Source: a virus (lineage: Duplodnaviria > Caudoviricetes). From it: a stretch of DNA of 64,000 bases. Below are positions 26,125 through 64,000 of this stretch, in pieces. The notes below the pieces were generated by a model, which was not told where the DNA came from, searched no databases, and saw only the letters and a program-made list of their open reading frames with translations. A program made the translations under genes and the position numbers. Location: positions 1-64,000 of IMG/VR virus record IMGVR_UViG_3300033074_001927, one strand, 5' to 3'. Numbering within the stretch: the stretch's first letter is position 1; each line of letters opens with the position of its first letter.

Positions 26125-26190
26125 ATATCAAGAAAAACGCTAGTAGAAAGATAAATATTATCAAATCTGTTTTATAGCAAGAATTGCACA

Positions 26191-31039: not shown

Positions 31040-31197
31040 AAAGTTTTTCTCCACCAAAAAGTATCAATAAGATGTTTTTTGTCTTTGCCGGCATTGACTA
31101 TTTTAACCGGACCAGAACAGTAGCAAACAGTCTCTGTGATTGGCATTATTTCTTCACATCTTGCACATTGCTTACAGAAGATGTCTTCTGAATGCAT
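31018..31197 (-). CDS. Small Cys-rich protein, 59 aa, not in ORF track
   Basis: MHSEDIFCKQCARCEEIMPITETVCYCSGP...; fills the gap. Confidence 0.5.
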   Translation of the reverse strand: MHSEDIFCKQCARCEEIMPITETVCYCSGPVKIVNAGKDKKHLIDTFWWRKTLWRLKKS

Positions 31198-31933: not shown

Positions 31934-32664
31934 TGCGTCAACCTCGTATATTTGCCATCTGCTAGTAGACGCTTCGCCTGTTGGCGGCAAAATTCTGCGG
32001 CCGCATCAGTTTCATCTTTTTTCCTATTTGTTATTTGGCCACCATGTATGCGATATCCCATTAGCACTTCGGGCAAAAGGCTGAATGACGTGTACTGGGC
32101 TGCCCTTGTAGCCCACTCATAATCTTCGCAAACCTTATTCCAAAACGGGCCGGCTTTTAGCCACAAGTCTTTCGTATACAAAAAAGAAGGGCCAAGATCA
32201 TAGCCATTAACAAGATCTTCTACTGGCTGAGTTTTTGCGTGCCGCAGCTCTCTTATTGGTTTGCCATTCTCAGTAATATACATAAAATCACTATATACAA
32301 AGTGGATGCTGCTTAGTGAAGTTATGTGGTCATATAGCCTTTGCACAAAATTTGGAAAATAAAAATTATCTGCGCTACACCACGTAACATATTTGCCAGT
32401 TGCAACCTCATGCCCAGCATTAAGGGCACTTCCAGTTCCGCCATTTTCTTTGTCTAGCGTCTTAAGCCTTCTATCAAATAGAAATTTGCTTATTGTATCT
32501 TTTGTTGAATCGGTAGATCCGTCATTTACTACTATAATTTCGATATCTGAAAAATCCTGTTGCACCAAGCTGTTTAGACACGAAGCCAATAGACGTCCAC
32601 CATTATATACTGGAACAACAATAGAAACTATTGGATCTGGATCCTCAATTAGGAATTGATGCAT
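31930..32664 (-). CDS. Glycosyltransferase family 2
   Basis: VSIVVPVYN, EIIVVNDGSTD, N.G...ALN.G, ADN, EDYEW; start MHQF (track 32736). Confidence 0.93.
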   Translation of the reverse strand: MHQFLIEDPDPIVSIVVPVYNGGRLLASCLNSLVQQDFSDIEIIVVNDGSTDSTKDTISKFLFDRRLKTLDKENGGTGSALNAGHEVATGKYVTWCSADNFYFPNFVQRLYDHITSLSSIHFVYSDFMYITENGKPIRELRHAKTQPVEDLVNGYDLGPSFLYTKDLWLKAGPFWNKVCEDYEWATRAAQYTSFSLLPEVLMGYRIHGGQITNRKKDETDAAAEFCRQQAKRLLADGKYTRLTQ

Positions 32665-33265
32665 TGCTAAATCTCCCAAAAACTTTTCTAAATGCCCACT
32701 GCATCTCAGGCAGCACTCTGTCGTGAAAAAGAACAACTTGCGATGTATAGGCTATGTGTTCAGAATAGTCTCCTATTCCAAAAACGTCTGTTACGAATCT
32801 ATTTGCTGCAGACTCTACAAATAGCGTTATCCCATGATAATATTGATGTTTATAGCACATTTTGTATGCTAGTAAAAATTCATCTATATTGATTAGGCTG
32901 TCACCAGAGTCTCTTCCAATGTCATCTATATGATGAACATATTCATGTATGATTGTTGGTATGATGTCTTTTTTGATAAAAGATTCTGAAACAACAACCT
33001 TTCTTCCGATACCGTGACCAAGAAGCAAGCTCATTGTTTTACTTCCAAAACTCGTGCCGGCTGCATAGGCTGTTGATGCAGTAGGAGATACGACCATTGG
33101 TATGTCTTTTATAAGATCATAGGCCTCTTTTGTAAAATTAGTCCTCAACACATCGTCAACAGTTCCGCTATATCCGTAGTTGTCTAACCTATCCAAGGTC
33201 GTATAACATCCAGACATTAATATTACAAGAGATAATACAAGTAATCTATTTTTCTTTACTAACAT
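32645..33265 (-). CDS. Putative lipoprotein zinc metallopeptidase (HEXXH)
   Basis: Lipobox-like KKNRLLVLSLVILMSG-C; IIHEYVHHID and downstream SEHIA; GGAGG SD. Confidence 0.65.
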   Translation of the reverse strand: MLVKKNRLLVLSLVILMSGCYTTLDRLDNYGYSGTVDDVLRTNFTKEAYDLIKDIPMVVSPTASTAYAAGTSFGSKTMSLLLGHGIGRKVVVSESFIKKDIIPTIIHEYVHHIDDIGRDSGDSLINIDEFLLAYKMCYKHQYYHGITLFVESAANRFVTDVFGIGDYSEHIAYTSQVVLFHDRVLPEMQWAFRKVFGRFSNASIPN

Positions 33266-33911
33266 GGAAGTATCCTCCGCCATTTTCTGTGCCAACTTTT
33301 TGCATAAACGCCTGACACTCTTCATCTGGTGGCTTACCTCCAGCAGTGTAGTGCTTGTTTTCTATTCCAATAGATACGATAATAGCTTTTCCTAAACCGT
33401 TGTCCTCTCTCCATTTTTGCGCATCCTTAATGCATCTGTCTATTACTCCAAAGCCGCGATTATTGCAAGCCTCTGTGAAGCCGCCATCTGATATAAGCAC
33501 GATGGTTAATCTTTCTTTATTCTGCCTTATTGCTAAATCAATAGCAACCCTGCCGTATGAAAGGACTCCTTTTGTTTTTTGCACAAAATCATCGGCTTTT
33601 CTTATTGCTTCTGGAGACATCTCCATCCAGTCGAGCCGTCTTTCCATTCCTCTGTCATTAAAAGTAATGACGCTTATATTCATTTCATCTGTAGGAAACT
33701 TTAATGACTCAAAGAGTCCAGCCCTAACGAGACCAAATATATTATGTGTTGAAGAGCTGTTGTCTATTACAAATTGCCAATTTTTTGTCAATGGAACTGA
33801 TGGCATGTTAACATTTCTAAATACATAATTCTGTATTGGCGGCTGTTCGGCAAGAACAAGTAGTGGAAAAACAAGTATTGTTAGCCAGGTGGCTATTTTT
33901 TTTCGCATCAC
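33246..33911 (-). CDS. Exported von Willebrand factor A domain protein
   Basis: Signal peptide; MIDAS-like VIDNSSS and IVLISDGG; VSIGI; NGGGYF. Confidence 0.75.
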   Translation of the reverse strand: MMRKKIATWLTILVFPLLVLAEQPPIQNYVFRNVNMPSVPLTKNWQFVIDNSSSTHNIFGLVRAGLFESLKFPTDEMNISVITFNDRGMERRLDWMEMSPEAIRKADDFVQKTKGVLSYGRVAIDLAIRQNKERLTIVLISDGGFTEACNNRGFGVIDRCIKDAQKWREDNGLGKAIIVSIGIENKHYTAGGKPPDEECQAFMQKVGTENGGGYFHVSKEK

Positions 33912-34474
33912 ACCCTCTCAAAAATGAACGTGGCCCTTACTCTATGATTTGTTGAGCGTGTAAGCAATATTTCTCCGACCCTCTTCCAATCTGTCTTCTT
34001 ATACATCGGCATTCTCTCGTCTAGCCAGATCAGGTGTCCACCGCGCTCTGTTATTTTTGCGCACTCACTCATTACAACGCGCTTATTTGGGTGTTTTACG
34101 CCATAAATTTTACTGTCTTCAGGCTGATATGGCGGGTCCGCTATAACTAAATCAAATGAATTTGGCTTAAAATACTTGCTTGCCTCTTCCGCATTGCCAA
34201 CAACATCTGGAGAGAACCTGTCACTAACATCCATTCTTTTATAGTTGCCTGGTTCGAGAGAGCCGCTAAATATATGTAGAATATTTTTTTTGTCACCAAA
34301 CATCGACATCATTCTTGCCAAATATCCTCTTGGAAACTCTCCATAGAACTTGTTCTTGCTCCTATAGTCATTTCCAATATTAAAACAGCCTACTATCCAA
34401 CCCTTGTCATATATAAGTTTAGGATATTTGTGATATAAGCTATTATAGCAATCAACCCTCTCTTGATAGTCCAT
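33908..34474 (-). CDS. Phage amino-methyltransferase-like protein (DPPY)
   Basis: ILHIFSGS (motif I-like), FDLVIADPPY (motif IV). Confidence 0.75.
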   Translation of the reverse strand: MDYQERVDCYNSLYHKYPKLIYDKGWIVGCFNIGNDYRSKNKFYGEFPRGYLARMMSMFGDKKNILHIFSGSLEPGNYKRMDVSDRFSPDVVGNAEEASKYFKPNSFDLVIADPPYQPEDSKIYGVKHPNKRVVMSECAKITERGGHLIWLDERMPMYKKTDWKRVGEILLTRSTNHRVRATFIFERV

Positions 34475-35487
34475 TACACATCCAACCAGTTATAAAATGG
34501 CTTCATTTTAACATCGCCAAATCCACCACTCCACATCCATTGTGGAATTGTTGGCATGCTTCTGTGTTGACTGTAATACTTGCTACCTGTTTTCCAGTTC
34601 TTGAACCCCATATTTTGGTATAATGGATCTTTTACACAAAATAATGGATGATTTTCCATTACTCGAGGATGCGGCCCATCAAATTCAAGTATCGTGTCTA
34701 GACTCTCAGTCCCATTAACATATTCCTCAAATTTTGCATCAAAAGCCTTGGCAGCATTTCCTCCTCCTGTTGCAGGAAATTTTTCCAATTCTTTTCTGTA
34801 GAACTCCTGCTTCATTTTGTGAAATTTTTCACCTTTCGCGTGCCCATAGTGATATATAAAGACGGGGATCATATATCGCTGTATTTGTATTTCTGGTGAA
34901 AAATAGCTACAAGAGCCATCAGGCAGCGTTGCTACTGGATGCGTATGATACCTCATTCCCCTTACATATCTAATTATTCTTTGGTGATTCAAGACCCATT
35001 CAGGATGGAAGTCCTTTATATGATAAAAGTCTCTATAAAAATGCAGAAATGTGGGAATAAATTCTATTGCAGATGGGCGAATGTGCGCTGCACGCCTTAT
35101 CCTGTCAACATCTCCATCTACATAGAACTCGTCAGCATCCACGATGCAAAGAATCTCGTCTTCATTTGCTACATCTAAAAATATCTGCTTCTGCTCTTCT
35201 AGAGACCTGAAGTGTCGACCTATCTGATATAGTTCTATTTTGTTATGTGGATCTGGAAATGATTTTATTATTTCTATTGTAGAATCTGTGCTATGCCCAT
35301 CGCTAGTGCTGTTTGGCCTACCTTCGACTGCGCCTTCAACAATTCTTATTTTATCAAACTCTTCATAATTGTTTTTTAATACATACTCTATCCAATCCTC
35401 TTCGTTGTGTGCGCCAACACACTTAATCAACTTTATGTTGTCTACATCTCTATTTATTTCTGAGTTTATTAAGTCTATCTGTTTCAT
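34474..35487 (-). CDS. GT-A fold (GT2-like) glycosyltransferase
   Basis: AHNEEDWI, STDSTIEII, IVDADE (DxD), IYHYGHA. Confidence 0.85.
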   Translation of the reverse strand: MKQIDLINSEINRDVDNIKLIKCVGAHNEEDWIEYVLKNNYEEFDKIRIVEGAVEGRPNSTSDGHSTDSTIEIIKSFPDPHNKIELYQIGRHFRSLEEQKQIFLDVANEDEILCIVDADEFYVDGDVDRIRRAAHIRPSAIEFIPTFLHFYRDFYHIKDFHPEWVLNHQRIIRYVRGMRYHTHPVATLPDGSCSYFSPEIQIQRYMIPVFIYHYGHAKGEKFHKMKQEFYRKELEKFPATGGGNAAKAFDAKFEEYVNGTESLDTILEFDGPHPRVMENHPLFCVKDPLYQNMGFKNWKTGSKYYSQHRSMPTIPQWMWSGGFGDVKMKPFYNWLDV

Positions 35488-36157
35488 TTTTTATTGATTC
35501 CTCGCATAGGGCGGCAAAATCAGGATCTTTTTCAATTACTATATACTTCCTACCTGTCCTCAATGCCGCGACAGCGGTGGTTCCACTACCAGCAAATGGA
35601 TCTAAAACAACATCTCCTTCGTTAGTAAGTATTTCTAGTATTTCTGTAAATAGTCCATCTGGCTTTTTTGTAGGATGTTTTGATCTCTGAGACGCATAAT
35701 TAAAAACTCCAGTTTCTCTTTTAAAGCCGTCCCTTCTCCTAAATGTCCACTTGCCTTTTGGCTTAACTGCCCAAACAGCAAATTCTAGACATGAAACAAA
35801 AAGTCTATCAAGATTGCGCGGTGCTGAATTTTTCTTAACAAGGACAAGGGGGCGCTTAACAAGCATTCCGCACCGCTCAAGCTCGTCTACAACATGAGAC
35901 ATATAGAGAAAAGACGTCCATATGACAATGCCACCACCCTTCTTAAGGGTTGCTACTGCATCCTTTATCCAGCCAGTTAGGTCGAAGCCGACATCCCATT
36001 CGCCAAACATTACTCCATGTTGTTTGATCTTCATGGTATGAAAATTGTTTGCCTTGCTGATGTTGTATGGCGGATCTGTTAATATAAAATCAATTGATTC
36101 AGGCTTTATTGTCTTTAGGACTTCAAACGCGTCCCCATTAATTACAGTATTGATCAT
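35450..36157 (-). CDS. N4-cytosine/N6-adenine DNA methyltransferase (beta class)
   Basis: IDFILTDPPYN, HPTKKP, VVLDPFAGSGTT. Confidence 0.93.
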   Translation of the reverse strand: MINTVINGDAFEVLKTIKPESIDFILTDPPYNISKANNFHTMKIKQHGVMFGEWDVGFDLTGWIKDAVATLKKGGGIVIWTSFLYMSHVVDELERCGMLVKRPLVLVKKNSAPRNLDRLFVSCLEFAVWAVKPKGKWTFRRRDGFKRETGVFNYASQRSKHPTKKPDGLFTEILEILTNEGDVVLDPFAGSGTTAVAALRTGRKYIVIEKDPDFAALCEESIKNETDRLNKLRNK

Positions 36158-37230
36158 ATATTTGCCACAATCTTGTCTGCGGTATTTTGCCAGGATAGAG
36201 CTCGAGCCGACTCAACTCCTGTAAGATTTGGAAGCAGCTTTCCAGTCTGCTTTTCTTCGTGCACTTTTTTCATTTCTGACGCTAGATCCTCTATATTAAA
36301 AGTACACCAACTTCCATTGTTGTGAAACCACCTTCCATCATTTGCTAGCTCAAATCCTGTAGGATTGATAAGTCTTGCATTATCTTTGTTGCAAAATTCT
36401 GTATGGCCAGCATAGTTGGTGGCTATAACATGTCCTCCGCACGCCATAACCTCTAGCGCCTCAAGATTCCACCCCTCTGCATGACTTGGAAATACTCCGC
36501 AATCTATATGCGAAAATATTTCAGCCATTATGTTTTGCTTCTCAAACCTCGGAAAGAACTTTATATTCCTCCCCATTTTTGATGACAAATATTTATTTTT
36601 CCACACATCGTTTTCTGAGCCAATAAATGGATTTTCATTTATCATCCAAAGTTCTACGTTGTCATCGGTGGAAAACGCTAGATTAAACGCCTCTAACAGC
36701 TCCTCGTGTCCCTTTCTTTTTTCCCACTTTCCAGCATTCAAGAACACCGTAGACTGCCTGGTGTAAGCCGGCCTTCTTTTTCTTGCCGCTTCAGAAAACA
36801 CAAAAGGATCTCCAACGCCAAGCGGAACAACATGAACGTTCTTGTGTCCGGTTTGCAGCTCTACAACCTCTTTTGCCCAAGAAGAACATACAAACACAGC
36901 ATCCAGAGACGAGATTTGATGCTTCTCTCTATCTGTAAATTCTCTAAGTTCAAATATTGGCCATCCAACCTTCAGCCCATTTCCACATGGAAATAAATCA
37001 AGCTGATGTTGATGCCAGATACGTATTGATGGAGCACTTCTGTCGTAGAAATGTGAGTTATTAATTGCAGACTCTATTAATTTTTTTGACTCAACACTTC
37101 CATCAAAATGCGCATCCCCTATGGGAAATAATGCCACATTATGACCAGCTATGCTTAGATGTTTTAATACATTAAAGCCAACAACGCCATACCCTAAACT
37201 GTTTATTGGCGCAACAAGGTTTATATTCAT
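36154..37230 (-). CDS. Glycosyltransferase family 4 (GT-B)
   Basis: LGYG, GKWEKRKG, VFPSHAEGWNLEALEVMACG..VIATN..GH. Confidence 0.92.
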   Translation of the reverse strand: MNINLVAPINSLGYGVVGFNVLKHLSIAGHNVALFPIGDAHFDGSVESKKLIESAINNSHFYDRSAPSIRIWHQHQLDLFPCGNGLKVGWPIFELREFTDREKHQISSLDAVFVCSSWAKEVVELQTGHKNVHVVPLGVGDPFVFSEAARKRRPAYTRQSTVFLNAGKWEKRKGHEELLEAFNLAFSTDDNVELWMINENPFIGSENDVWKNKYLSSKMGRNIKFFPRFEKQNIMAEIFSHIDCGVFPSHAEGWNLEALEVMACGGHVIATNYAGHTEFCNKDNARLINPTGFELANDGRWFHNNGSWCTFNIEDLASEMKKVHEEKQTGKLLPNLTGVESARALSWQNTADKIVANI

Positions 37231-37231
37231 T

Positions 37232-38371
37232 CTATACTCCAGCCCTATAATGCTTTTCTATAACAGATAGAAGTGTTTTCCCAACGCCTTCTACAGAAAA
37301 TTCTGACATTTTTTCTATGCACTTTCTTTTTCTATCAGACCATTTACAGTGCTTGTTGCCTGAAAACTTATATATCTTCCATTCGTTATAAGCAGCTCTC
37401 ATAGCCTCCATCACCTTTGAGGTAACAGGTTCTGCCCACATGTCTGATCCGGTATACATAAAACTATGAGGATGTGGCATATCTATGCATGGCGATGGAT
37501 TTTGCGGAATTAGCCATCCGCAGCTATCATCAATGAAGTGCGTTGGCCCGCCCCAATTTGTAGCAATAACAGGAGTTCCGCGATGCATCGCCTCCATGTA
37601 TGGAAGGCCCCAACCCTCCCCCCTGGATGGCAGACAGAAGAGATCAGCCGTAGAATATAACCTATTCATTTGGGCCTTGGAATATACTTCTGGCAACAGC
37701 ATTACGTGAGCATAATCATTCATCCTCAGGGCTTCTTTCATTTTATCTACCTGAAAAAACAGCTTTTCTTTGTATTCCTTATTTGAAACCGTATTAGCAT
37801 ATGTTTTTAGAATCAAAAGAACTTTGTCTGTTTTCCTAAACTCGGCAAAAAATGACTTAAGCAAAACATCTATGCCTTTCTTTTTAGAATCTTGGCATAC
37901 AGCCAGTATCTTGAAGTGACTTTCAAATCCATCCACAGCATATGGAGCCGCAACCTCTGGCGGATTCATGCATAGTGGAACATACTCTACTGGAACATAG
38001 ACGCCTGATTTTTTTGCCGCAAGGACGTTCGCTTCACAAGAAACTATAACAAGATCCATTCTATTTAGTTTGTTTACCCACTCAGAAGGCATCCTGTCTG
38101 TTTCCCAAGATATACAATTTACATTAAAAACTCCATCTTTTCTTTCCGTCTCATTAGGAGTCGTGTGCTGAACAACAACATCTACGCCACTGGCTGGCTT
38201 TAGATAAAGAGTGGCGAGCTCTGCGTCAAACTCAATAGAACCGCCGTCGTAAACCAGTGGACGAACCACCACGTCCGCTCCTGATCTAGTCAAGGCTCTT
38301 GCGTAGTTCCTTGATGCTTCGGCATATCCGCTTATGTCTTTTAATGGACCTACATAAAGTATTTTTTTCAT
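37232..38371 (-). CDS. Glycosyltransferase family 4 (GT-B)
   Basis: SGYAEASR, WETD, KKG...L, LPSRGEGWGLPYMEAM..G.PVIATNWGG. Confidence 0.92.
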   Translation of the reverse strand: MKKILYVGPLKDISGYAEASRNYARALTRSGADVVVRPLVYDGGSIEFDAELATLYLKPASGVDVVVQHTTPNETERKDGVFNVNCISWETDRMPSEWVNKLNRMDLVIVSCEANVLAAKKSGVYVPVEYVPLCMNPPEVAAPYAVDGFESHFKILAVCQDSKKKGIDVLLKSFFAEFRKTDKVLLILKTYANTVSNKEYKEKLFFQVDKMKEALRMNDYAHVMLLPEVYSKAQMNRLYSTADLFCLPSRGEGWGLPYMEAMHRGTPVIATNWGGPTHFIDDSCGWLIPQNPSPCIDMPHPHSFMYTGSDMWAEPVTSKVMEAMRAAYNEWKIYKFSGNKHCKWSDRKRKCIEKMSEFSVEGVGKTLLSVIEKHYRAGV

Positions 38372-40005
38372 TTTAATATTCCACTAAGCCGATCAGATAC
38401 AAACTCTATGGTTGGCGCCTCAATCGACATTCCTCTTATCTCCATAGATCTTGAATATCTCTTCTCCTCAAATCTATTATCTATTTGCGCCTCTCTTCTA
38501 AAGTAATTTTCTACGTCATCCCTGCTTTTACCAGCAGCAATCTCTTTTAGCCAATATTTTATGCCATCCGTGTCTGGTTGGCGATTAAGAATAAGTTTAT
38601 AGCACGCGACTATAAAATCATCTGCAGATGTATTTGCAGGCAATCTTCCACGGACAGGACTCTTGAAGAGCGGGCGAACATCCCACGTTTTACTTCTGTC
38701 ATATGGCTTTATTTTGTCAATAATGCTCATTAGCTTGTTTGCAGAGATGTCCCATGCGTGCATTGATTGCGCGCACTTTATGGCTGCGGCTGATAAATCA
38801 TTCCTCTTCTTTTTGTCTGTAACTAGCAGTAATAGCTTCTTTACAAAATCCTCCTCATCTGGCAGAGACCTTACCGCCATTGTATTTGGTTCTGTATAAA
38901 ACTTCTTAACAGATAGAGGAAGTCCCCCACCATTTGCAATATGGTCTTCCATAGCCGAGTAGTTTTGGTATATGCCCGGCACGCCGCAAGCCTTCGCCTC
39001 AACTATTGGCAGACCCCATCCCTCGCATATTGCTGGATGAACATAAACGTCCATTAGGTTATATATTTCTGCTAAATCTGCCGCGTCTACTCCGCTATGC
39101 GTGTTTGGCATATGCGCCTTATTGGCTCCGCAAAAAATACATTGCGCAAAACCGTCCTTTGACGACGGCAGGAACCATTGCAAAAACACCTTTGAGCAGG
39201 CGTCACACTTGTATGTAAAGATAACATCCCTCTTTATTTTATTCCTATTTAAAAGTTCTGGAAGATCCCAGCCTGAATCTGGCCATGATGTGTGACACAA
39301 CAAAACAGACTTATTCACCTCTGGTATTTTACTGTGCCTCTTCTTCAAGGTAGCAAAGGCAGAAAATAGCTCTGGGAACAACTTACGAGACTGATTTCTC
39401 ATAACTGTTCCTATAACAACAATATTTTTATTTATGCCCCAGTCTGCACGCACAGCGTCTTTATCTAGTGGCCTAAATAAAGACAAGTCAACTCCTGGAC
39501 TTATAACATCCGCTACAGGCACTCCTTGCTTCTCTAGAGTTTTTTTGCCAAAATAGCTGTAAGCGCAAACCACTGTTGCCTTTTTAAATATGTCGTCTAT
39601 CCACTCGACCTTTTGTGGCGCAGAGTCTACTGTTGGAATAAGTATTGTTTTGTAATTTGACGCAAACCTATTGTTTACATCATGCGACATCATCCACGGG
39701 TCTCTAAAATTTATAACAATATCTGGTTGAAAGTCTGCTAAAAATCCCTCTATTTTGTAACCGCCAAAGTGCGCAGCCCTATCCCTTGCTACAATCTCCT
39801 TTTCCGCATCGTTTGTTGGCAATACTCCGTAAAACTTCCAAGGAAGCTTAGATGCCCTCGCGTCTTTCTCGGATCCCCACGATCCGACCTCTGCGAGCTC
39901 ATACTTTTTGGTTGCGTGCAATCTTCGCATGAACTCGTTCTGCATTACTGCAAAACCAGTAGAAAGCCAGCTAGCCTCACCGCTAAACATTATTCTTTTC
40001 TTCAT
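38368..40005 (-). CDS. GT4 glycosyltransferase with zinc-ribbon insert and C-terminal DUF4214-like domain
   Basis: STGF, VMRNQSRK, CDAC..CIFC insert, EGWGLPIVEAKACG, FI..CYKLILNRQPD.DG..YW. Confidence 0.9.
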   Translation of the reverse strand: MKKRIMFSGEASWLSTGFAVMQNEFMRRLHATKKYELAEVGSWGSEKDARASKLPWKFYGVLPTNDAEKEIVARDRAAHFGGYKIEGFLADFQPDIVINFRDPWMMSHDVNNRFASNYKTILIPTVDSAPQKVEWIDDIFKKATVVCAYSYFGKKTLEKQGVPVADVISPGVDLSLFRPLDKDAVRADWGINKNIVVIGTVMRNQSRKLFPELFSAFATLKKRHSKIPEVNKSVLLCHTSWPDSGWDLPELLNRNKIKRDVIFTYKCDACSKVFLQWFLPSSKDGFAQCIFCGANKAHMPNTHSGVDAADLAEIYNLMDVYVHPAICEGWGLPIVEAKACGVPGIYQNYSAMEDHIANGGGLPLSVKKFYTEPNTMAVRSLPDEEDFVKKLLLLVTDKKKRNDLSAAAIKCAQSMHAWDISANKLMSIIDKIKPYDRSKTWDVRPLFKSPVRGRLPANTSADDFIVACYKLILNRQPDTDGIKYWLKEIAAGKSRDDVENYFRREAQIDNRFEEKRYSRSMEIRGMSIEAPTIEFVSDRLSGILK

Positions 40006-56105: not shown

Positions 56106-58704
56106 AGGTAAACGCTCCTCCTCTCATTGGATTCCCACCATTTCCATTGAGAGGCTGTTTATTGACGGGCACATTGTAAGAAGACATAAAGTTAGTAAGA
56201 CGCTCTGGCAATATTCTGGCACCACCGCTATTTAGAAACAGAGCAATAGTAGCCCAGTCTTCTTTTGTCAGCTCTCCAAATTTCCTTGTATATGACTGTA
56301 ACTGGTATGTTGTTGTACATCCACCGTCAGTGCTAAAAGTCATTGAAATAGAACTTATGTTAGAATTTCTATCAACAGCTTGTCCAAGAGTATATTTTGG
56401 ATATGATTCCACTGCTATTGTGCCAGAGAACAGCTCTTTTTGTGCAGACGCAATGTTGTCAACCTTGGCTTGCATGGCAAGAGCCATGAGCGATATTGAA
56501 CCAAATTCCCACGGAGCAAACCCATCATCCTGAATAACTTCAAGACGACCGAACTCTATTTCATTGATGCGCGACGGAAATATTGGACCATAGCGCAAAT
56601 ATCTAGAACGGGTCGGTATGTATACGTTAACTGGTTGGTATGCCTTTGGATGACTTATTGTAAACCCAGGGCCAACAACGGATGCTATGTTTTGCGCTAT
56701 CTTGCTTACAACAAATGCCTGGTTTCCATCTGCCTCCACGCCTATCACGTCTTCGTTATTTACTTCATTTCCGCCATTTATTCTTGCCTGTATCGCAGAG
56801 ATTTTTGCCACAACGCTTGTTCTTTGAGAACTAACTCTATCCAGCTCTCTTATTTTGAGAGTTCTCTTAGTTCCATCTAGAAGTTCATCAATCTCAGCAT
56901 TAAGATCTCTTTGCCTGATCGCTAGAGATTCCTCCCTCTCTTGTAGTGCGCTTAATTTTGATAGCAGATAGTTTGATGTGTCAGACTCAGCTATGTTTAT
57001 TATTTGCTTAAGTGCATCGTCAGCCGATGGATCTAGAGTTTTTTCCGTAATTGGTGACTCTATTCTCACAACGCCATCCTTATCTATTGTGCATGCAACA
57101 AATATGGATGTTGTTGGAGATGCTGCCTCGTAAGTATAGTGGGACTTATCCATTTTTATTACATAGTTGGTAGGATCGAGTACGTCGTTTTCCATTCGTA
57201 TGATGGCATTATTTGGCTCGACGCCAGTATTTTCGAAGGTTTTGCCATAGGAGGTTATGTTTCGGAAAACAACACTATCTCCAAAAGATTCTCTAGGAGT
57301 GGATATAACATTTATTACTCCTGTAGGCGCTCCATACAAGAACTCTACAAATGCCCTCGTCCTACCATCTTCCTGTCTAAAATATTCTAGTGGGTTGTTG
57401 TTAAAGCTAGTTGCATCTCTTGTCCAACACGATTCTATGATTTCATCAAAAACATCCTCGTGAACAAAACGCTTACCATATGTTGATGTCGCATGTCCGC
57501 TTAGCTTTTCATAAACCTTTCCCACCACCTCTGAAAAGTCCGTTTGCAGATCCCTAGTTTTTCTATTTTTGTTTTTGAAAAGATTGTTAACGCTTACATT
57601 TTCTTGAACATCTGCAAGATTTGGTATTATTGTTTTTGCATACGAGTCTAACAGCGTCCCACCATACCTAGAGAATCCACCACCTCCTCCGCTTTCTGCC
57701 GGTATTGTTATCCACGCCTCCCACGACTGCTTACCTCCTAGAACAGCCCTCATTTCATCTTCGGTCATCAGGTACGCAGCAGATCCGCTCTCCTGACTAA
57801 GATCTAGAGGCTCATTAGCAAGTCCAGCTATCGGAACTCTTTTAATAGATTCTATAGCAGCCCCAAGCAAAACCGCACATGCAGAGTCGGTCTTGAGTTC
57901 AACTCCAGACGTTGCAGTAATTACCTTTTCTGGATGATCGTCTAAAAATTCTTGCAAACTAAGTTCTATATTGTCTTCTTTTCTATCTATTACCTTAACT
58001 GTAACAACAATTGTGTTATTTACCACAGAGCTTTCAACAAACCAGTCAAAAGAGTTCTTTTGTGCAATGTCTTCAATGACAGAAGATAGCGGCGAAAAGT
58101 TGGTATTGATTAAAAAGTCGCCAGACACATAGTTGTCAACTTCACTTAAATCGAAACTGTATGTGTCTCCCAAGATATTTACTGTCTGCTGCGGGAAGCT
58201 AAATGTAAAATTACCAATAGTAAGCGAGCCACCGCTTATTGCTTTTGAAAAGCTTCTATATGGCATTCCAGCCTGTGTCCAACCAGAAAAGTTCCAGGCT
58301 TGAGCATCTACGCTAAATGCTCCAAATACATCTATAAGTTTACAGTTAGTATTTCTTACGCCATCTATTATAGCGCTTGATCCTGGATTGATAATAACAG
58401 GTAGGTTAGACATTATTTGTCGTGGATCGCTAATATTTATTCTTATAAATCTACCACCAACATTCCTTAAGTCCAGATCATATTTTGTTATGATTCCACC
58501 AAAGCTCCAATTATTCCCAACTTCTACTGTGTAGTATCTGCCAACCTCTGGGTGCTGGAAAGCAAAGCCGTTCTGAGGGTCTTCGGCCAATGTGACGGTT
58601 ATTGAACTAGGGTTGCTTGAAAAACCAGTATTTGCGCTAATATGCTTAATATATGCGCCTAAAAACGTTGGTGGAGAATTCAGTCCAAGAGTTGTTACTG
58701 TCAT
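56098..58704 (-). CDS. Putative baseplate hub/tail protein
   Basis: TFLGA.I, FGGII, SDPR, FDWFV, YGP, APWEFG, ISSIS..F..DGG.TT.Y.L beta-rich architecture; coiled-coil insert. Confidence 0.55.
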   Translation of the reverse strand: MTVTTLGLNSPPTFLGAYIKHISANTGFSSNPSSITVTLAEDPQNGFAFQHPEVGRYYTVEVGNNWSFGGIITKYDLDLRNVGGRFIRINISDPRQIMSNLPVIINPGSSAIIDGVRNTNCKLIDVFGAFSVDAQAWNFSGWTQAGMPYRSFSKAISGGSLTIGNFTFSFPQQTVNILGDTYSFDLSEVDNYVSGDFLINTNFSPLSSVIEDIAQKNSFDWFVESSVVNNTIVVTVKVIDRKEDNIELSLQEFLDDHPEKVITATSGVELKTDSACAVLLGAAIESIKRVPIAGLANEPLDLSQESGSAAYLMTEDEMRAVLGGKQSWEAWITIPAESGGGGGFSRYGGTLLDSYAKTIIPNLADVQENVSVNNLFKNKNRKTRDLQTDFSEVVGKVYEKLSGHATSTYGKRFVHEDVFDEIIESCWTRDATSFNNNPLEYFRQEDGRTRAFVEFLYGAPTGVINVISTPRESFGDSVVFRNITSYGKTFENTGVEPNNAIIRMENDVLDPTNYVIKMDKSHYTYEAASPTTSIFVACTIDKDGVVRIESPITEKTLDPSADDALKQIINIAESDTSNYLLSKLSALQEREESLAIRQRDLNAEIDELLDGTKRTLKIRELDRVSSQRTSVVAKISAIQARINGGNEVNNEDVIGVEADGNQAFVVSKIAQNIASVVGPGFTISHPKAYQPVNVYIPTRSRYLRYGPIFPSRINEIEFGRLEVIQDDGFAPWEFGSISLMALAMQAKVDNIASAQKELFSGTIAVESYPKYTLGQAVDRNSNISSISMTFSTDGGCTTTYQLQSYTRKFGELTKEDWATIALFLNSGGARILPERLTNFMSSYNVPVNKQPLNGNGGNPMRGGAFTFG

Positions 58705-60692
58705 GTTTGAGTATGCGTCCAGGAAACGTTACGAGTAAATACCAGGGTTCGTTTATTAAATGTATACTGATCAGCTGTCTTAAACACCCCAGAGGCTATC
58801 GGTTTCTCGCCCCTCGAGTGTTCAAGCATTGTGTTGTTTACCAAAATATCAGATTCGGATAGTGCAGCAAGCTCCAATTGATATTGAGTGGCCGTTGATA
58901 TTGGTCCACAGGTTATTCCGCTTGGGGTCATACTATATTGGATACGTAGACGTTTTTCTCTCTGCGTAACTGTACCTTGGTCCTGCAATATTGGACCGGT
59001 AGACTTGAGTGGTATTGGAATAATCGCAATAACCTGTCCAGGAAGTTGATAATCAACCTCAATGACTTCGTCAGAAATAAGTGGATTGTCTGACAGGTAT
59101 CTATTGTCATACCTGTAGTCGTATGTAACTATGCCTCCGCGCTTATTGTACCCGATCGTTGTGCTTATTGGATTTATTCCAAGACACGATCCGCTTGGAA
59201 TAAGGTCTTCTGCTCTTCCGCGAATAAGCGGCATGATTGTGTTGTAAAATGCGCCAGAAGCGTTAGTGAATCTGTCTGTAGAAGATGTAGAACTTTCTGG
59301 CGAAAGTCCATATACACTACCATTTATGCTTATTGTTACTGTAGCAGTTTCTATGTTTTGTTCCCTGCTTGACTGCCACTCTTCCCAATATCCAGATACG
59401 CTTTGGTCTCTGTATACTTTTGTCAGACTAAAACTTTTTTGCAGATCATCTCTTTCTGCACTAACAGATTCTATATTACCAGAATAGGAGCTAGAAAAAT
59501 ACGGTTCTATATAACTATCAATTGGGTAGTTATTAGCGACACAGTAATTAATGGCGTGCTCTATGCCAGACGTGCTGGACAGGGAGACTCTTGCGGATGT
59601 TGTAACAGACTGAGTAACACTACCATCATCATTGCGCGTTAGTGAGCGCGTTATTGCCCTATCTTGTAGCGGGTCTTGCTGATCAACACCATAGTCTACT
59701 GAGTATGTTACCGTGCCTGCAAACCTGTTATCGGACCTGCTCTTGCTTAAGATGCCCGTAGTACTATAGAAGCTTATTTGTGGAGCTACAATGTCTTCAA
59801 ATGCAGTAATGGCGTTGTCTAGGCGAGAGAATGTATCGTCTCCGTAGCCTTGCACTGTTCCATTGACCGCAGTAGACAGTTGTAGTATCCCACTACCAGT
59901 CAGCTCCCATGAGCTCTCTATGGTCCTGTCGTCTTTATAGTTTCCAGAACTTAATACCCAGCTCTCATCTATAGAATATGATCCGGCCGTAGTGTCTGAG
60001 TTTTCAGAACGAGTATGATTGAACTCAAACAGATTGTCTACATCTAATATTGAAGAAGTGTAGGGGCTTTTAATAAAAAAGCTTAGTGTTTTGTCTATGG
60101 TATTTGATCTAGATAAAACAAAATCTTTTGCATTCTCTAATGCGCCAGTTGGTGCTCCAATGTCATTTATGCCAACAGCGCTTATTGAGTGAGTTACAGT
60201 TACGGTATCATCGTCTTGTTGCTGAAATGCCCAAGTATCAGAGAATGTACTTATCCTTGCGTCGGCGTCTGAATAATGTTCTGTAGAAAATGCAACAGTA
60301 TAGTCGCGCTTAGTAACAATTTGACTTAGATCAAAGTTTATAGAATCTACTCTTACATGTTCCGAAAGAACGGCATAACCAGATGCATCTACGATAAGAA
60401 GATTTCCATAGTCTTCATCTAGAGCCGATTTTAGCTGATCGCTTTTACGATCCAATAGCTCAAGACATGTTGCTTCAGAATTTACACCAGACAACTCTGG
60501 AAGGTCTGGAAGTAACGTGCCTTCAAACGTAAATGTCTTTGTAGTCGCAATCCTTCTTTGCTCGCCATCTATAATGAGAGATGTAGATTCAACGTCTTCT
60601 GACATGAACGGAACCGGACTGAAACAGTAGGCCAGCCCATCTGACCGCCTAATGTAATACATTCTTGTTCCAGAATTAAAATTTACAGGCAT
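58701..60692 (-). CDS. Putative tail/baseplate structural protein
   Basis: S/T-rich repeated beta modules (TV.YS.DY, V.YDY.YD); context. Confidence 0.55.
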   Translation of the reverse strand: MPVNFNSGTRMYYIRRSDGLAYCFSPVPFMSEDVESTSLIIDGEQRRIATTKTFTFEGTLLPDLPELSGVNSEATCLELLDRKSDQLKSALDEDYGNLLIVDASGYAVLSEHVRVDSINFDLSQIVTKRDYTVAFSTEHYSDADARISTFSDTWAFQQQDDDTVTVTHSISAVGINDIGAPTGALENAKDFVLSRSNTIDKTLSFFIKSPYTSSILDVDNLFEFNHTRSENSDTTAGSYSIDESWVLSSGNYKDDRTIESSWELTGSGILQLSTAVNGTVQGYGDDTFSRLDNAITAFEDIVAPQISFYSTTGILSKSRSDNRFAGTVTYSVDYGVDQQDPLQDRAITRSLTRNDDGSVTQSVTTSARVSLSSTSGIEHAINYCVANNYPIDSYIEPYFSSSYSGNIESVSAERDDLQKSFSLTKVYRDQSVSGYWEEWQSSREQNIETATVTISINGSVYGLSPESSTSSTDRFTNASGAFYNTIMPLIRGRAEDLIPSGSCLGINPISTTIGYNKRGGIVTYDYRYDNRYLSDNPLISDEVIEVDYQLPGQVIAIIPIPLKSTGPILQDQGTVTQREKRLRIQYSMTPSGITCGPISTATQYQLELAALSESDILVNNTMLEHSRGEKPIASGVFKTADQYTFNKRTLVFTRNVSWTHTQT

Positions 60693-60700
60693 TTGATCAC

Positions 60701-63700
60701 CTAGTTAAAGAAATTTCCTGTTGGTATAGACGCAACTAAGGTAGCAGGTAGTGGGAAGTAGTTGTGCGCAGGACACGCCTCTTTACTATTAACTCCGCTT
60801 GTTGTTCCTATCATTGTTCCGTATATGGTTGATATGGGGAAGTTTGACCCAATAACGAATCCATTAATGCTATCGCTAAATGTTCCACTAATGCCAAAAA
60901 GCCATCCATTTATTTCGTCTCCAACAAATCCGGCCCCACTCATGTATGCATTTATTGAACTAGCCGCTTCTTCATGCCCAACCAAGAATCCATGTATTAT
61001 AGAATCGTCAGCTCCTGCGGATACGTATCCAAAAATATGCTCCCAATAACCTGGCGGCGCCATTAGATAACCATTTATTTGCTGAAATCCATCATGTGCC
61101 TTTAGATAGCCATTAATCCAGTTGGTGCCTGGAATGACATTTGATGTTGAAGAACCTCCACCTCCTGGGCCTCCACCAACCAATCCACCTCCACTAGGAA
61201 CTAGCGCCTCACTGCCCAAATATCCCCATATACTAGATATTGGATAGTTGCCCATCAAATACCCGTTTATACTAACGCTTTCCAAATCCTCCGCGCTCAA
61301 ATAACCATTTATTATTGACTGTGGTCCAATAAAAAACTCGCCATTTCCATTCCAGCCAGGTAAATACGAATTTATATAGCTTACATCTCCAGAGGGTGTA
61401 AACATATATCCATTTATTACTTGATCGCCAATGCCAAAACGAGCATTAAGATAACCAGCTATGCTACCACTAAATACACTTTGGCCATATGTATTCACTA
61501 TGCCATTTATATAACTCTCGGCATCAAAAGCTTTTACATAACCGAATATTTGATTTTGTCCGCTTGGTATGTCTCCTGGTGCTGATGCGCCGATAATATA
61601 GCCATTTATTCCTTGATCCCAGTTTGCAAGTAAAATTCCATTGATGTTAGATTCATCCCATCCAGTCCAAACAAGCATGTAACCATTTATGGATCCAGTT
61701 GGATATGTAACAGCAAACTCGCCAGAATTGACTGCAAGCATGTAACCATTTATAGAGCCATCAGTATTGGCATATAAGTAACCGTTTATTGAACTAACAA
61801 AATCTGGATCTACAGCTGATAGTAAATATCCATTAATCGAACTATCGAATGGCGCGCCATACATGTAGCCATAAATTTGTTCTGAATAGTTTGTATTCAT
61901 GTAGCCATTTATGATGCCAGTTGCAACGCCCTGCTCACCTTTTATGAAACCGTTTACGGACCATAGTGGCGGACCCGGCACGCCACTAACATTATCTATC
62001 CAGGCCGCTCCATACGTAAACGGATCAGTCGTAGAGCCCCTTATATATTTCCATCTTGCAGTATATGTTGATGCGTCTAGAGTTGTTGTATGAGTTAGCC
62101 AATTGTTAAATGATCCAGTCACACTAAGATGAACTGTTTCTGTATTAAATTCATCTATTGTAGAAAATTCAAAAACATCATCTTGATTTTGATCAAGCCT
62201 ATAGTCAAACGCTATATACCTCTTGTTGGCATTAAACTCTTCTACGCTAATATCAAGGTCTACCTCTACAACCCCGCTTGAACCAGGATATATCCCGCTT
62301 GATGGTATTGGGCCAACTGGAGAAACTAGTCCCGATGCGTCTGCTGCAGGCTCGCTGATTAACGAAAAACCATCTCCATTTCCGTTTGTTGCGGCCAAAT
62401 AATAAAATAGCCCAGATGGGACTAGGCCATTAGCATATGATGGCTCTTCTTGCGTTGGCAGCACAACGTCATGCGTAAAATCGCCACTAGCTACCGTATA
62501 CCACGTAAAGTCTCCATAAGACCTCCATGTTGCTGGAAGCTCTCCTCGTTTTCTTCTAAACCTCTCTATATATTGGCGACGAACTTGCGGAACGTTAAAA
62601 TATGTATGGTCTGCTGTTGTAGTTTGATGTGCAGTAGTCGAAGGGCCAAACAGCCTTATTTCACTTATTCTTCTGCCGCTAGTTGTATAGGCTGTCGTAA
62701 AATTAAGCCTAACATACCTTGCGCTTATCGGATCAATGAGTTGATAGAATCCCTGCGACCCCGGCTGAACTTCTACTTCTAGCTCATTTGCAGTAAAGCG
62801 CCTAAGCCTAGTTCCAAGACTCGCATTACCAGATGGAATTGTTTGAATATAAGAAAAGTTTGTGCCATCATGCGAGGCATACAGATCTATCTGCCCTATG
62901 TCTCTATTGTTTGTGGCCGCGCTTGAGCTGCTTTGACCAACAATTTCTATTCTATCTATTACTCTACTCTTATCCATTTCAAGAGTTAGATAGCTGCCGC
63001 TACCAACAAGCCCGTAAGTATTCACATCTCCATCAAACATGAGAGGGATGTCTGCATGAAAAAACGCATCTGATACGCCAACAAATATGTTTTCGTCACC
63101 AGAGGTTGCGGTATAATCTATTTGATAGTATGGCTGATTGTAGTGTGAGCGAACGGCAGGAGACTCATCCATGTTCCATATAACTAAATTTGAGCCACTA
63201 GGATAAGTTGATGTATAGCTGTTTGTTACTATTAGTTGAGATTTAAAATCATTACCACTTGGAGCAGTAGGATGCTTAAGAGCCTTGAAGTTTTTATAGA
63301 AGCACCTTCCGTTATATCCACCAGCAACATCATGCGAAACTTGTGACGTAAAACGCATGCCGGATGGATATATGTCGGCAGGAGCCGTATAGATGCGATA
63401 GCTGGTGCCATCATGGAATGGGCGTGAAGCTGTTCTTACGATGCATTGATGGCCGGCACTATTTTTTTGTTGCCAATACCAATACATGTTGCCGTAGCTG
63501 TCAAATGAAAAGTCACAATTTGTTCCAGATCCAGGAAAGTCGCCACCAACGCCATATATACCAGACTGTGGTATTTGGTCCCGCCAATCTATAGTCGCAG
63601 TTTCTACTACCTGCCCATCATAAAGAACGGACGACCTGGAGTCTAGGCGCGTAAATGTTTGACCTCCGCTAATTTGATAGTTTCCCCACAAATCATTGCC

Positions 63701-64000
63701 AGAAGAAGAACAGGTAAAGGAAGTCAGGCCAGTATATGGCAGCGTGCCACTTCCAATGCCCATCTTGCCGCAAAACGGCTCTTCTCCAGACCCAAGGTAT
63801 CGTGGGAAAAATCCCTGAACATGCCAGAAATCAAAAGAACTATTTCTTATTACTGGTATTATTTTTCTGTCTACATCATCATAGTATGCAACACCTGCGC
63901 CATTGCCATTATCACCATCAGCATAAGTGATTGGGTAGCCTCCATTAGTGCCAGCATTATCTTCTCCTATGGTTTCTTTTAAGAAGAAGCCGCTAGAGTG
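60701..64000 (-). CDS. Large virion protein (5'-partial): F5/8-discoidin-like domain plus C-terminal INGY repeats
   Basis: Frame stays open from 63763 to the window end, so the true start is outside; YASHDG.NF, ARYVRL..T, ISEIRLFG discoidin-like motifs. Confidence 0.75.
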   Translation of the reverse strand, partial: HSSGFFLKETIGEDNAGTNGGYPITYADGDNGNGAGVAYYDDVDRKIIPVIRNSSFDFWHVQGFFPRYLGSGEEPFCGKMGIGSGTLPYTGLTSFTCSSSGNDLWGNYQISGGQTFTRLDSRSSVLYDGQVVETATIDWRDQIPQSGIYGVGGDFPGSGTNCDFSFDSYGNMYWYWQQKNSAGHQCIVRTASRPFHDGTSYRIYTAPADIYPSGMRFTSQVSHDVAGGYNGRCFYKNFKALKHPTAPSGNDFKSQLIVTNSYTSTYPSGSNLVIWNMDESPAVRSHYNQPYYQIDYTATSGDENIFVGVSDAFFHADIPLMFDGDVNTYGLVGSGSYLTLEMDKSRVIDRIEIVGQSSSSAATNNRDIGQIDLYASHDGTNFSYIQTIPSGNASLGTRLRRFTANELEVEVQPGSQGFYQLIDPISARYVRLNFTTAYTTSGRRISEIRLFGPSTTAHQTTTADHTYFNVPQVRRQYIERFRRKRGELPATWRSYGDFTWYTVASGDFTHDVVLPTQEEPSYANGLVPSGLFYYLAATNGNGDGFSLISEPAADASGLVSPVGPIPSSGIYPGSSGVVEVDLDISVEEFNANKRYIAFDYRLDQNQDDVFEFSTIDEFNTETVHLSVTGSFNNWLTHTTTLDASTYTARWKYIRGSTTDPFTYGAAWIDNVSGVPGPPLWSVNGFIKGEQGVATGIINGYMNTNYSEQIYGYMYGAPFDSSINGYLLSAVDPDFVSSINGYLYANTDGSINGYMLAVNSGEFAVTYPTGSINGYMLVWTGWDESNINGILLANWDQGINGYIIGASAPGDIPSGQNQIFGYVKAFDAESYINGIVNTYGQSVFSGSIAGYLNARFGIGDQVINGYMFTPSGDVSYINSYLPGWNGNGEFFIGPQSIINGYLSAEDLESVSINGYLMGNYPISSIWGYLGSEALVPSGGGLVGGGPGGGGSSTSNVIPGTNWINGYLKAHDGFQQINGYLMAPPGYWEHIFGYVSAGADDSIIHGFLVGHEEAASSINAYMSGAGFVGDEINGWLFGISGTFSDSINGFVIGSNFPISTIYGTMIGTTSGVNSKEACPAHNYFPLPATLVASIPTGNFFN
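60800..61960 (-). repeat. Degenerate protein repeat, about 25 copies of (S/Q/Y)I(N/F/Y)G(Y/F)
   Basis: Manual count in translation; recurring CCATTTAT/CCGTTTAT on + strand. Confidence 0.8.

Follow-up and report, generated by a model that had tools for sequence, protein, structure and literature searches.

Results

Two predicted tail-tip genes follow the tape-measure gene

The window analysed here is a stretch of 64,000 nucleotides from the ~175-kb genome of an uncultured phage (IMG/VR record IMGVR_UViG_3300033074_001927), whose virion module lies at 54-88 kb. Two adjacent genes rich in Ser-Gly (SG) pairs were found in this module just after the tape measure (Table 1). The first of them is the next gene downstream of the tape measure (64516-71115) and encodes a 1271-aa protein composed of a beta-propeller, a CBM32 domain and an IxGY-repeat fibre. 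The preliminary description had treated a 1020-aa frame as this gene. That frame starts at an internal Met and is a truncated version, because the gene passes the window edge. Homologues align across the whole 1271 residues and share invariant residues at the N-terminus, which supports the longer start.

Table 1. Features of the tail-tip region and the sugar island, with positions numbered from the first letter of the window
Feature	Position	Strand	Remarks
1271-aa tail-tip protein	60701-64516	-	gene crosses the window end; part in the window 60701..64000
N-terminal beta-propeller (predicted), part in the window	63137..64000	-	residues about 1-460 of the 1271-aa protein
F5/8 type C (CBM32-like) carbohydrate-binding domain	62684..63040	-	PF00754; residues 493-611 of the 1271-aa protein
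C-terminal fibre	60812..61957	-	residues 854-1235; about 23 S-I-N-G-Y repeat copies of 12-16 residues each
663-aa Dit-like hub or baseplate protein	58701..60692	-	about five modules, each a 4-stranded sheet plus helix
N-terminal tube-fold domain	60261..60692	-	residues 1-144 of the 663-aa protein; matches Dit
Two tail genes, 868 aa and 597 aa	54312..58704	-	downstream of the SG-rich pair; no Pfam or PHROG match
Nucleotide-sugar and glycosyltransferase island	24076..40005	-	proposed enzyme source for the glycosylation hypothesis

The AF2 model of the propeller had a pLDDT of about 80-90. When this predicted model was searched with Foldseek, a six- or seven-bladed propeller fold was found, with matches to sialidase 1EUT (E=3e-14) and to the 7-bladed Photorhabdus lectins PLL/PHL (TMt 0.55-0.65). 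BFVD matches included phage proteins with a sialidase domain or a 7-bladed propeller, and the family consensus carries an Asp-box-like S-x-D-S-G-x-x-W in the propeller. The predicted structure suggests that the propeller is lectin- or sialidase-like. PF00754 was detected at E=6.8e-7 (29.9-30.2 bits, above the Pfam gathering score of 28.2), and some homologues carry a precomputed PF00754 label. The whole protein is a predicted carbohydrate binder. In the fibre, many S-I-N-G-Y copies have P-[S/T]-G a few residues upstream; the AF2 pLDDT of this region was below 50, and it was not modelled as a monomer.

The second gene encodes a 663-aa protein with only 6% Gly (AF2 pLDDT 82) and 701 relatives in the representative library. 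It gave no sequence-profile match in Pfam or PHROG, as was the case for most tail genes. However, VIA-align matched residues 7-140 to the baseplate of phage 80alpha (6v8i_AC, Z 10.3, rmsd 2.7, 114 aligned), to lactococcal p2 (2wzp_P, Z 9.9) and to SPP1 Dit (2x8k, Z 8.7). An N-terminal tube fold and proximity to the tape measure, which together characterise Dit, were thus both found, with one gene between the 663-aa gene and the tape measure. No sequence-level homologue among cultured phages was matched by megablast or tblastn. The "moraphage" lineage is contractile-tailed and has no tape measure, and is therefore not this clade.

SG pairs are in excess in the two tail-tip proteins

SG, and especially PSG, had been proposed to be enriched in virion-like proteins and to mark glycosylation sites. 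On recount, all SG, PSG and tripeptide counts of the preliminary description were exact, and the motifs were dispersed, not tandem. The 1020-aa frame holds 26 SG (13.4 expected), 8 PSG (0.65 expected) and 15 GS. The full 1271-aa protein has 35 SG against 16.4 expected and 8 PSG against 0.84, with 17 GS; the 663-aa protein has 12 SG against 5.2 and 2 PSG against 0.19, with 5 GS. When the two proteins were pooled, 47 SG stood against 21.7 expected (z=6.1) and 10 PSG against 1.06, whereas GS was at expectation (22). The pair is thus enriched over both composition and GS. Significance was assessed by shuffling within each protein, and was reached only by the 1271-aa (p<0.0005) and 663-aa (p=0.0025) genes. 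The proposed enrichment therefore held for these two adjacent genes, at about 2x, and not for the small genes named with them (16204-16602, 18791-19216, 17491-17775 and 8797-9171), which gave p=0.03-0.6 each. The virion-like label of the latter was also unsupported, as neither Pfam nor PHROG gave a match for them and their positions are distant from the virion module.

A contrast between structural and non-structural genes was likewise seen only in part. SG was at 0.97x in non-virion genes and at 1.18x genome-wide (GS 1.09x), but several virion proteins were not enriched either: the putative major capsid protein (333 aa, assigned by gene position; 1 SG against 1.2 expected), the portal (2/3.3), the tape measure (11/12.8) and the virion proteins of 954, 868 (9/6.3) and 597 aa (3/4.1). 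The tail-tube candidate (374 aa, also assigned by gene position) had 6 SG against 2.5 (p=0.03). In the rest of the virion module, PSG was 7/2.08 (p=0.004) and S-G-V/I/L 1.74x. A DNA-level motif was rejected as the source of the pairs, since the SG serines use both AGY and TCN codons and TCAGG and its relatives occur at Markov expectation.

We compared these values with 58 beta-rich virion proteins of lambda, T5, SPP1, T4 and P-SS2. SG averaged about 1.2x and S-G-V/I/L about 1.05x in this set, and none of the 58 proteins reached p<0.01 for SG. PSG was 8/5.6 in the four model phages and 11/4.4 in P-SS2. The excess is therefore not a generic trait of virion or tail proteins. None of these five phages has a kit for virion glycosylation, so that neither this comparison nor those with composition and GS refuted the glycosylation proposal.

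When all dipeptides were scanned blindly in every protein of this genome, SG of the 1271-aa protein ranked 5th (p=4.6e-5 in about 52,000 tests), so that the single-sequence signal was only marginal. It is credible because it is conserved at the family level and recurs in a second protein. The marginal rank would suit a historical accident noticed afterwards, in which ancestral SG corners were frozen by purifying selection on loops, had no common cause, and drew attention because glycosyltransferases lie nearby. Repetition across a family is inheritance, not independent replication; the small genes failed; and in lambda, which has no system of this kind, J (12/6.5) and H (10/5.1) are at 1.9x. 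However, SG was the top dipeptide in the non-repeat part of the 1271-aa family and second in the unrelated Dit-like family, and neither the PSG and S-G-V/I/L surplus in the remaining virion module nor the silence of the 58 controls would be expected from an accident, which we regard as rather improbable.

SG sites are conserved in both families and lie mostly in loops

All 43-44 homologues of the 1271-aa protein (25-47% identity) showed SG at about 2.0x. Representatives of the Dit-like family showed SG at 1.75x and GS at 1.15x. In the 1271-aa family, 737-926 of 1432 SG sit in 23-36 conserved columns, and no SG surplus was found outside the conserved columns (ratio 0.96-1.23), which gives no indication of selection for site density. 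Most of the strongly conserved sites are in the propeller. In a 480-aa subfamily of the Dit-like protein (alignment A4), about 9 semi-conserved columns hold 41 of the 72 SG, and selection for density with turnover of positions was not seen in the columns of either family.

At conserved sites, Gly was kept more often than Ser (855 vs 741 of 970 non-gap cells). Where Ser was replaced and Gly kept, the substitutes were T, G, D, E, A and N; Thr was the commonest (41/118), and Ala was rarer than at other conserved Ser columns. The residue before the pair is usually small and that after it aliphatic, with V, I or L following Gly at 3.6x (1271-aa family) and 2.5x (Dit-like family) over expectation; some sites read G-S-G-E/T or A-S-G-D. 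In the non-repeat part of the 1271-aa family, DG (1.07x), NG (0.97x) and TG (about 1x) were not raised, and PDG was observed 8 times against 15.6 expected. PTG was enriched 3.4x, and the C-terminal part of this family held 89 PSG against 14.2 and 44 PTG against 6.4. A generic [D/N/S]-G turn preference is thus insufficient to account for the excess.

The pairs were then placed on the predicted structures. In the confident part of the AF2 model of the large protein, loops hold 19 of 27 SG, and for most of the 27 the nearest strand end is no more than 3-4 residues away; in the Dit-like protein, 7 of 12 sit at most 2 residues before a strand. Most of the pairs thus occupy loops, and many directly precede a strand (S-G-V/I/L about 3x). 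Loop composition bias was rejected as a cause: 27 pairs were observed, and stratification by predicted loop or strand lifted the expectation only from 9.2 to about 10. Multiplication of the motif by internal duplication of the 663-aa protein was not detected, as module pairs gave z <=2.7 and their SG sites do not align.

The S-G pair behaves as a unit at conserved sites (S+T 81%, G 88%; P(G|S)=0.99, P(S|not G)=0.06), which could point to another Ser-directed function: a different modification, sugar-ligand contacts in the propeller or CBM32 domain, or recognition by a chaperone or protease. The predicted carbohydrate binding of the large protein and the trypsin-like peptidase in the sugar island are in keeping with it. 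However, sites occur in all domains and in both of the unrelated folds, unlike a single ligand site, neither a kinase nor any other modifying enzyme was linked to them, and the coupling is equally explicable by whole-loop replacement. We see only a slight chance that such a function is responsible.

The sugar island encodes soluble glycosyltransferases with generic family matches

The 16-kb island encodes GDP-mannose 4,6-dehydratase, epimerases/reductases, UDP-GlcNAc 2-epimerase, methyltransferases, and three GT4-type and one GT2-type transferases, with the peptidase among them. It is core to the clade: it was carried by 5 of 5 close and 41 of 44 wider relatives, and the three without it are fragments. 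Co-occurrence of motif and island is uninformative, because every non-fragment relative found carries the island.

The preliminary description had read x-S-G as the acceptor site of the phage's own glycosyltransferases. In its present form, Ser in [A/P/G]-S-G-[aliphatic] loops of the tail tip would be O-glycosylated in the infected cytoplasm by one of the island's soluble GT4/GT2 enzymes, and the outcome would be a sugar-decorated tail tip, not a coated capsid. The excess is directional and Ser-specific in exposed tail proteins (SG 2.0-2.3x; GS, DG, NG and TG about 1x) and absent from the 58 controls, the PTG enrichment and the preference for Thr over Ala as substitute also speak for it, and four or more soluble glycosyltransferases are at hand in the island. 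Phage-encoded virion glycosylation in mycobacteriophages and the GT4 enzymes SdgA/SdgB, which read Ser-Asp, are precedents. On the other side, island glycosyltransferases gave only generic GT4/GT2 matches and none came near the curated cut-off of a protein-O-glycosyltransferase model (GtfA 24.7 bits vs 574.6; SdgA 19.2 vs 800). The tail module of G009, a complete relative with glycosyltransferases, shows no SG excess, and the lack of a surplus beyond conserved columns gives no sign of selection for site number. With the putative capsid protein, portal, tape measure and several large tail proteins unenriched, a glycan-coated virion does not fit parts of the picture. We consider glycosylation of the tail-tip loops possible but unlikely. 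The fuller proposal is doubtful: that S-G-aliphatic, often after Pro, Ala or Gly, is the acceptor motif of a clade-core cytoplasmic O-glycosylation system whose targets are the propeller receptor-binding protein, the Dit-like hub and perhaps the tube and fibres.

If it were true, phage virion glycosylation would have its first defined sequon, a code readable from sequence, and a target would be identified for the sugar island that hundreds of large, uncultured 125-245-kb aquatic phages carry as a core feature. Chiefly, the present result narrows the claim. Only two tail-tip families carry the excess, conserved loop positions explain it there, and no independent contrast ties it to glycosyltransferases.

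A structural turn motif is favoured

The SG excess is real, directional, protein-level and conserved, and its sites are in loops or where strands begin. We infer that its conservation is due to folding or assembly rather than to modification. The excess follows protein family, not virion exposure. The structural reading is favoured, with about an even chance that SG marks a lineage-specific turn in a pair of all-beta proteins of the tail tip and is not a signal for modification.

By this mechanism, about 25-35 positions of the propeller/CBM32/fibre protein would be fixed as [small]-S-G-[V/I/T/polar] in short loops, often directly preceding a beta-strand. Gly would give the turn or bulge backbone conformation and Ser would cap the turn. 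The fibre P-[S/T]-G would belong to the repeated IxGY unit and so would have been multiplied through repeat expansion, and the Dit-like hub would use SG likewise in the hairpin loops of its tube-like modules. Against the turn motif, the excess is not generic to beta-rich virion proteins and is Ser-specific, with DG, NG and PDG not raised, and internal duplication in the Dit-like protein is not demonstrable at the sequence level. The recurrence of SG as a top-ranked dipeptide in two unrelated folds faintly suggests a shared cause that works at the level of the phage and not of a single fold.

Comparison with known systems

In type I turns with a G1 bulge, Pro is preferred at i+1, Ser, Asp or Asn at i+2 and Gly at i+3; beta-propellers such as WD40 have a conserved S-G-S-x-D turn, and turns usually favour Asp and Asn. 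The tail-tip pairs resemble these classical turns (N-P-D-G and S-G-S-x-D) in the order Pro, small polar residue, Gly, then strand, but differ in that Asp/Asn variants are unenriched (PDG 0.5x) and Ser is preferred.

The animal proteoglycan xylosyltransferase, a eukaryotic Golgi enzyme, recognises Ser-Gly with nearby acidic residues. The Ser-Gly dipeptide with Ser as acceptor is shared, and several sites here read G-S-G-E/T or A-S-G-D. However, the flanks are otherwise small or aliphatic, and the window showed neither a GT14-type xylosyltransferase nor a UDP-xylose synthase. In bacteria, Ser is glycosylated in the cytoplasm by the GT4 enzymes SdgA/SdgB (Ser-Asp repeats) and by GtfA/GtfB (serine-rich repeat adhesins), and the autotransporter heptosyltransferases TibC/Aah modify Ser in strand-loop-strand motifs. 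These soluble enzymes act on Ser in short repeated contexts of beta-rich surface proteins, and the island has three transferases of GT4 type. SdgA and GtfA acceptors are tandem repeats, whereas the sites here are dispersed, and the similarity of the island enzymes is that of generic GT4, far below the cut-offs.

To our knowledge, phage virion glycosylation has been shown chemically only in mycobacteriophages; Freeman et al. reportedly found virion O-glycosylation in Che8, Corndog and Myrna in 2023 (Cell Host Microbe 31:1216). There, the phage's own glycosyltransferases act on its own virion proteins, a target role that is proposed here as well. The glycans are reported to lie at the C-termini of capsid and tail-tube subunits (PMC12619734). 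Unlike this arrangement, the putative capsid protein here has no SG excess and the motif is dispersed in internal loops of the tail tip.

The combination of propeller and CBM in the 1271-aa protein is also that of the Micromonospora sialidase 1EUT and of phage proteins with a sialidase domain. The predicted tube fold of the 663-aa protein is common to siphophage Dit (SPP1 gp19.1, lactococcal p2 ORF15 and 80alpha), but about four tube-like modules extend beyond the known Dit. SPP1 Dit (0 SG) and T5 pb9 (2 against 1.6 expected) have no SG excess, unlike the 663-aa protein. In phages with Dit, the tape-measure gene is followed by that of Dit, whereas here the order is tape measure, propeller protein and then the Dit-like protein.

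Gene content and identity of the tail-tip proteins

The window covers positions 1 to 64,000 of a record that is 118,892 bp long and was rated 57% complete by CheckV. Complete relatives span 126-244 kb, some with terminal repeats. In addition to the features listed below, the window carries a replication block with a split DnaE, DnaB, primase, RecA, ThyX and SSB.

Positions of the features discussed, in coordinates of the whole record
Feature	Position	Strand	Remarks
558-aa protein, Gly_rich_2 domain (PF21722)	5455-7131	(-)	
Four small genes	8797-9171; 16204-16602; 17491-17775; 18791-19216		adjoin a recombination module
Nucleotide-sugar/glycosyltransferase island	24-40 kb		16 kb
Trypsin-like serine peptidase (PF13365, E=1.8e-16)	31172-31990	(-)	inside the island
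545-aa GT4-type glycosyltransferase, C-terminal DUF4214	38368-40005	(-)	
Virion module, downstream end	from 54.3 kb to window end		runs on past the window
663-aa hub protein, predicted Dit-like	58701-60692	(-)	
1271-aa tail-tip protein	60701-64516	(-)	
S-I-N-G-Y repeats	60812-61957	(-)	residues 854-1235; ~23 copies of 12-16 residues
Tape measure, 2199 aa	64516-71115		
Large terminase	87.9-89.7 kb		far end of virion module; beyond window
Ribonucleotide reductase large subunit	93449-97051		beyond window
237-aa tandem-repeat protein	112206-112919		beyond window

The preliminary description placed the start of the large tail-tip protein at an internal Met, giving a frame of 1020 aa. The gene encodes 1271 aa, and 43 homologues aligned over the full length with invariant N-terminal residues. 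AlphaFold modelled residues 1-850 well and left the C-terminus unmodelled. Its fold matches pair a beta-propeller with a galactose-binding module, the arrangement of sialidase 1EUT, and also include the seven-bladed Photorhabdus lectins (TMt ~0.6). Matches among viral models were sialidase-domain and propeller tail proteins, and Pfam detected an F5/8 type C domain. The C-terminal third consists of tandem S-I-N-G-Y repeats with a monomer pLDDT below 50. This failure on the monomer suggests that the repeats form an intertwined oligomeric fibre or a solenoid. The hub protein model (pLDDT 82) comprised five sheet-plus-helix modules, and residues 1-144 aligned at Z 8.7-10.3 with distal tail (Dit) proteins from phages 80alpha, p2 and SPP1. 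Based on these fold, domain and N-terminal matches, the 1271-aa protein is a predicted sugar-binding receptor-binding protein and the 663-aa protein a predicted Dit-like hub.

Ser-Gly excess is confined to the two tail-tip proteins

Expected Ser-Gly (SG) and Pro-Ser-Gly (PSG) counts and p-values were obtained by shuffling each protein 2000 times. The preliminary description had proposed that SG is enriched in virion-like proteins; its counts were all exact on recount, and the enrichment was borne out in the two tail-tip proteins. It did not extend to the putative capsid protein, the portal, the tape measure or the 954-, 868- and 597-aa proteins, in which shuffling gave no SG excess. The four small genes, described as virion-like and SG-rich, each gave p=0.03-0.6. 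Profile searches found no family match for them, and with a recombination module adjoining they bear no mark of virion genes. As a separate observation, the Gly_rich_2 protein has the opposite asymmetry (GS 17, SG 8, with 12.7 expected).

Dipeptide and tripeptide counts (observed/expected, or ratio)
Set	SG	PSG	GS	S-G-V/I/L
1271-aa protein	35/16.4, p<0.0005	8/0.84	17	
663-aa protein	12/5.2, p=0.0025	2/0.19	5	
Two tail-tip proteins	47/21.7, 2.17x (z 6.1)	10/1.06		3.1x
Other virion-module proteins (n=21)	78/60, 1.30x	7/2.08		1.74x
Remaining proteins (n=128)	141/145, 0.97x	6/6.79		1.03x
Large-protein family, pooled (44)	1432/715, 2.0x	212/37.6, 5.6x	0.96x	3.6x
Hub family (133 representatives, >=400 aa)	1.75x	88/24.6	1.15x	2.5x
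Lambda, T5, SPP1, T4 (45)	1.23x (rank 17/244)	8/5.6	~1.03x	1.07x
P-SS2 (13)	1.13x	11/4.4		1.03x

In a blind scan of all dipeptides in all proteins, SG of the large protein ranked fifth (p=4.6e-5 among ~52,000 tests), behind tandem repeats only, and this one sequence is therefore marginal evidence. The 237-aa tandem-repeat protein, with recurrent G-L-P-A, Y-W-E-N and K-R-H-R, dominates both the dipeptide and the tripeptide outlier lists of the genome. The SG excess was found in all 44 members of the large-protein family (25-47% identity). A blind scan of four complete relatives repeated the result in G002, whose 1271-aa orthologue has SG 30/13.5, and gave a mild excess in some tail genes of G007 and G047.

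The excess occupies fixed positions in a Ser-specific manner

As controls for a general property of beta-rich virion proteins, the marine siphophage P-SS2 supplied 13 virion or fibre proteins, and a further 45 virion proteins came from lambda, T5, SPP1 and T4. None of the 58 had an SG excess at p<0.01, the nearest being lambda J (12/6.5) and lambda H (10/5.1), and averages were 1.13-1.23x. The excess is therefore no general property of such proteins.

Within the non-repeat part of the large family (residues 1-850), SG was the most enriched dipeptide (2.31x), and Asp-Gly (1.07x) and Asn-Gly (0.97x) were not enriched; pooled Thr-Gly stood at ~0.9x. PSG reached 123/23, PTG 47/19.4 and PDG 8/15.6. 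About half of the large-family SG lies in 23 columns conserved in half or more of the aligned members, and no surplus was found outside conserved columns (1.23-0.96x after masking 23-36 columns). The hub protein has 701 relatives, typically ~480 aa long, and SG ranked second among dipeptides in the representatives. Its positions are less conserved than in the large family; in an alignment of the closer 480-aa subfamily, 41 of 72 SG fell in ~9 semi-conserved columns, with the remainder at or under expectation.

The large-protein model contains 27 SG, of which 19 fall in loops; the majority of the 27 are no more than 3-4 residues away from the end of a strand. In the hub protein, 7 of 12 SG are at most 2 residues ahead of a strand, several within hairpin loops. 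Conserved sites carry A/P/G/T/S before the pair and V/I/T/S/N/L after it. At these sites Gly is conserved above Ser, and the two are tightly coupled, with P(G|S)=0.99 and P(S|not G)=0.06; where Gly is retained, the main substitutes for Ser are Thr (41), Gly (17), Asp (11) and Glu (11). The excess acts at the protein level: Ser is encoded by both codon families and no pentanucleotide is skewed. A strong codon-pair bias was also observed across all called genes of the record: TCA precedes Gly 21 times against 55 expected, and none of the 47 SG pairs in the two tail-tip genes uses it, AGC, AGT and TCT being favoured. There is no depletion of TCAGG as a pentamer, so this avoidance is at the reading-frame or translation level and not at a DNA site.

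We favour, at about an even chance, a structural turn motif. This is based on the fixed columns without surplus beyond them, the loop-to-strand location with Gly conserved above Ser, an excess that tracks protein family and not virion exposure, and the multiplication of P-[S/T]-G inside the fibre repeat. A purely structural reading leaves unexplained the Ser-specificity, the missing excess in all control phages, and one dipeptide topping two unrelated folds in a single phage. The same three observations keep alive the proposal that SG serines are acceptors for the phage's own glycosyltransferases. We consider this unlikely, and have narrowed it from a coated virion to a decorated tail tip. An accident combined with post hoc choice is likewise unlikely, and another Ser-directed function is very unlikely.

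Glycosyltransferases in the relatives

GT4-type genes and a GDP-mannose dehydratase were present in all five close relatives tested. GT4-type genes also occurred in 41 of 44 records with a hub-protein relative, the other three being fragments. With no relative lacking glycosyltransferases for contrast, their co-occurrence with SG is uninformative. In G009, which has glycosyltransferases, the tail module showed no SG excess (1368-aa tape measure 4/7.7, hub 4/3.0, 1556-aa protein 13/12.2). Against NCBIfam, the island glycosyltransferases gave generic GT4/GT2 similarity only, far under every curated cut-off.

Open frames of 545-615 aa with the same GT1-profile segment as the 545-aa gene recur in nearly every wider-clade record, so of the island's enzymes this one appears to be the most conserved. 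The island peptidase gene has a GT2 gene on one side and a gene for a sugar epimerase on the other. Elsewhere in the record, the ribonucleotide reductase large subunit is split by an intein that itself bears a LAGLIDADG homing-endonuclease domain (PF14890, PF14528).

Comparison with known tail modules

The tape measure gene is followed by that of the 1271-aa propeller/CBM32/fibre protein and then by that of the Dit-like hub (58701-64000, on to 71115). The relative G007 has the same order, with a ~1150-aa protein and a ~510-aa Dit-like protein after the tape measure. In model siphophages, however, Dit directly follows the tape measure, whereas here the 1271-aa gene stands between the two.
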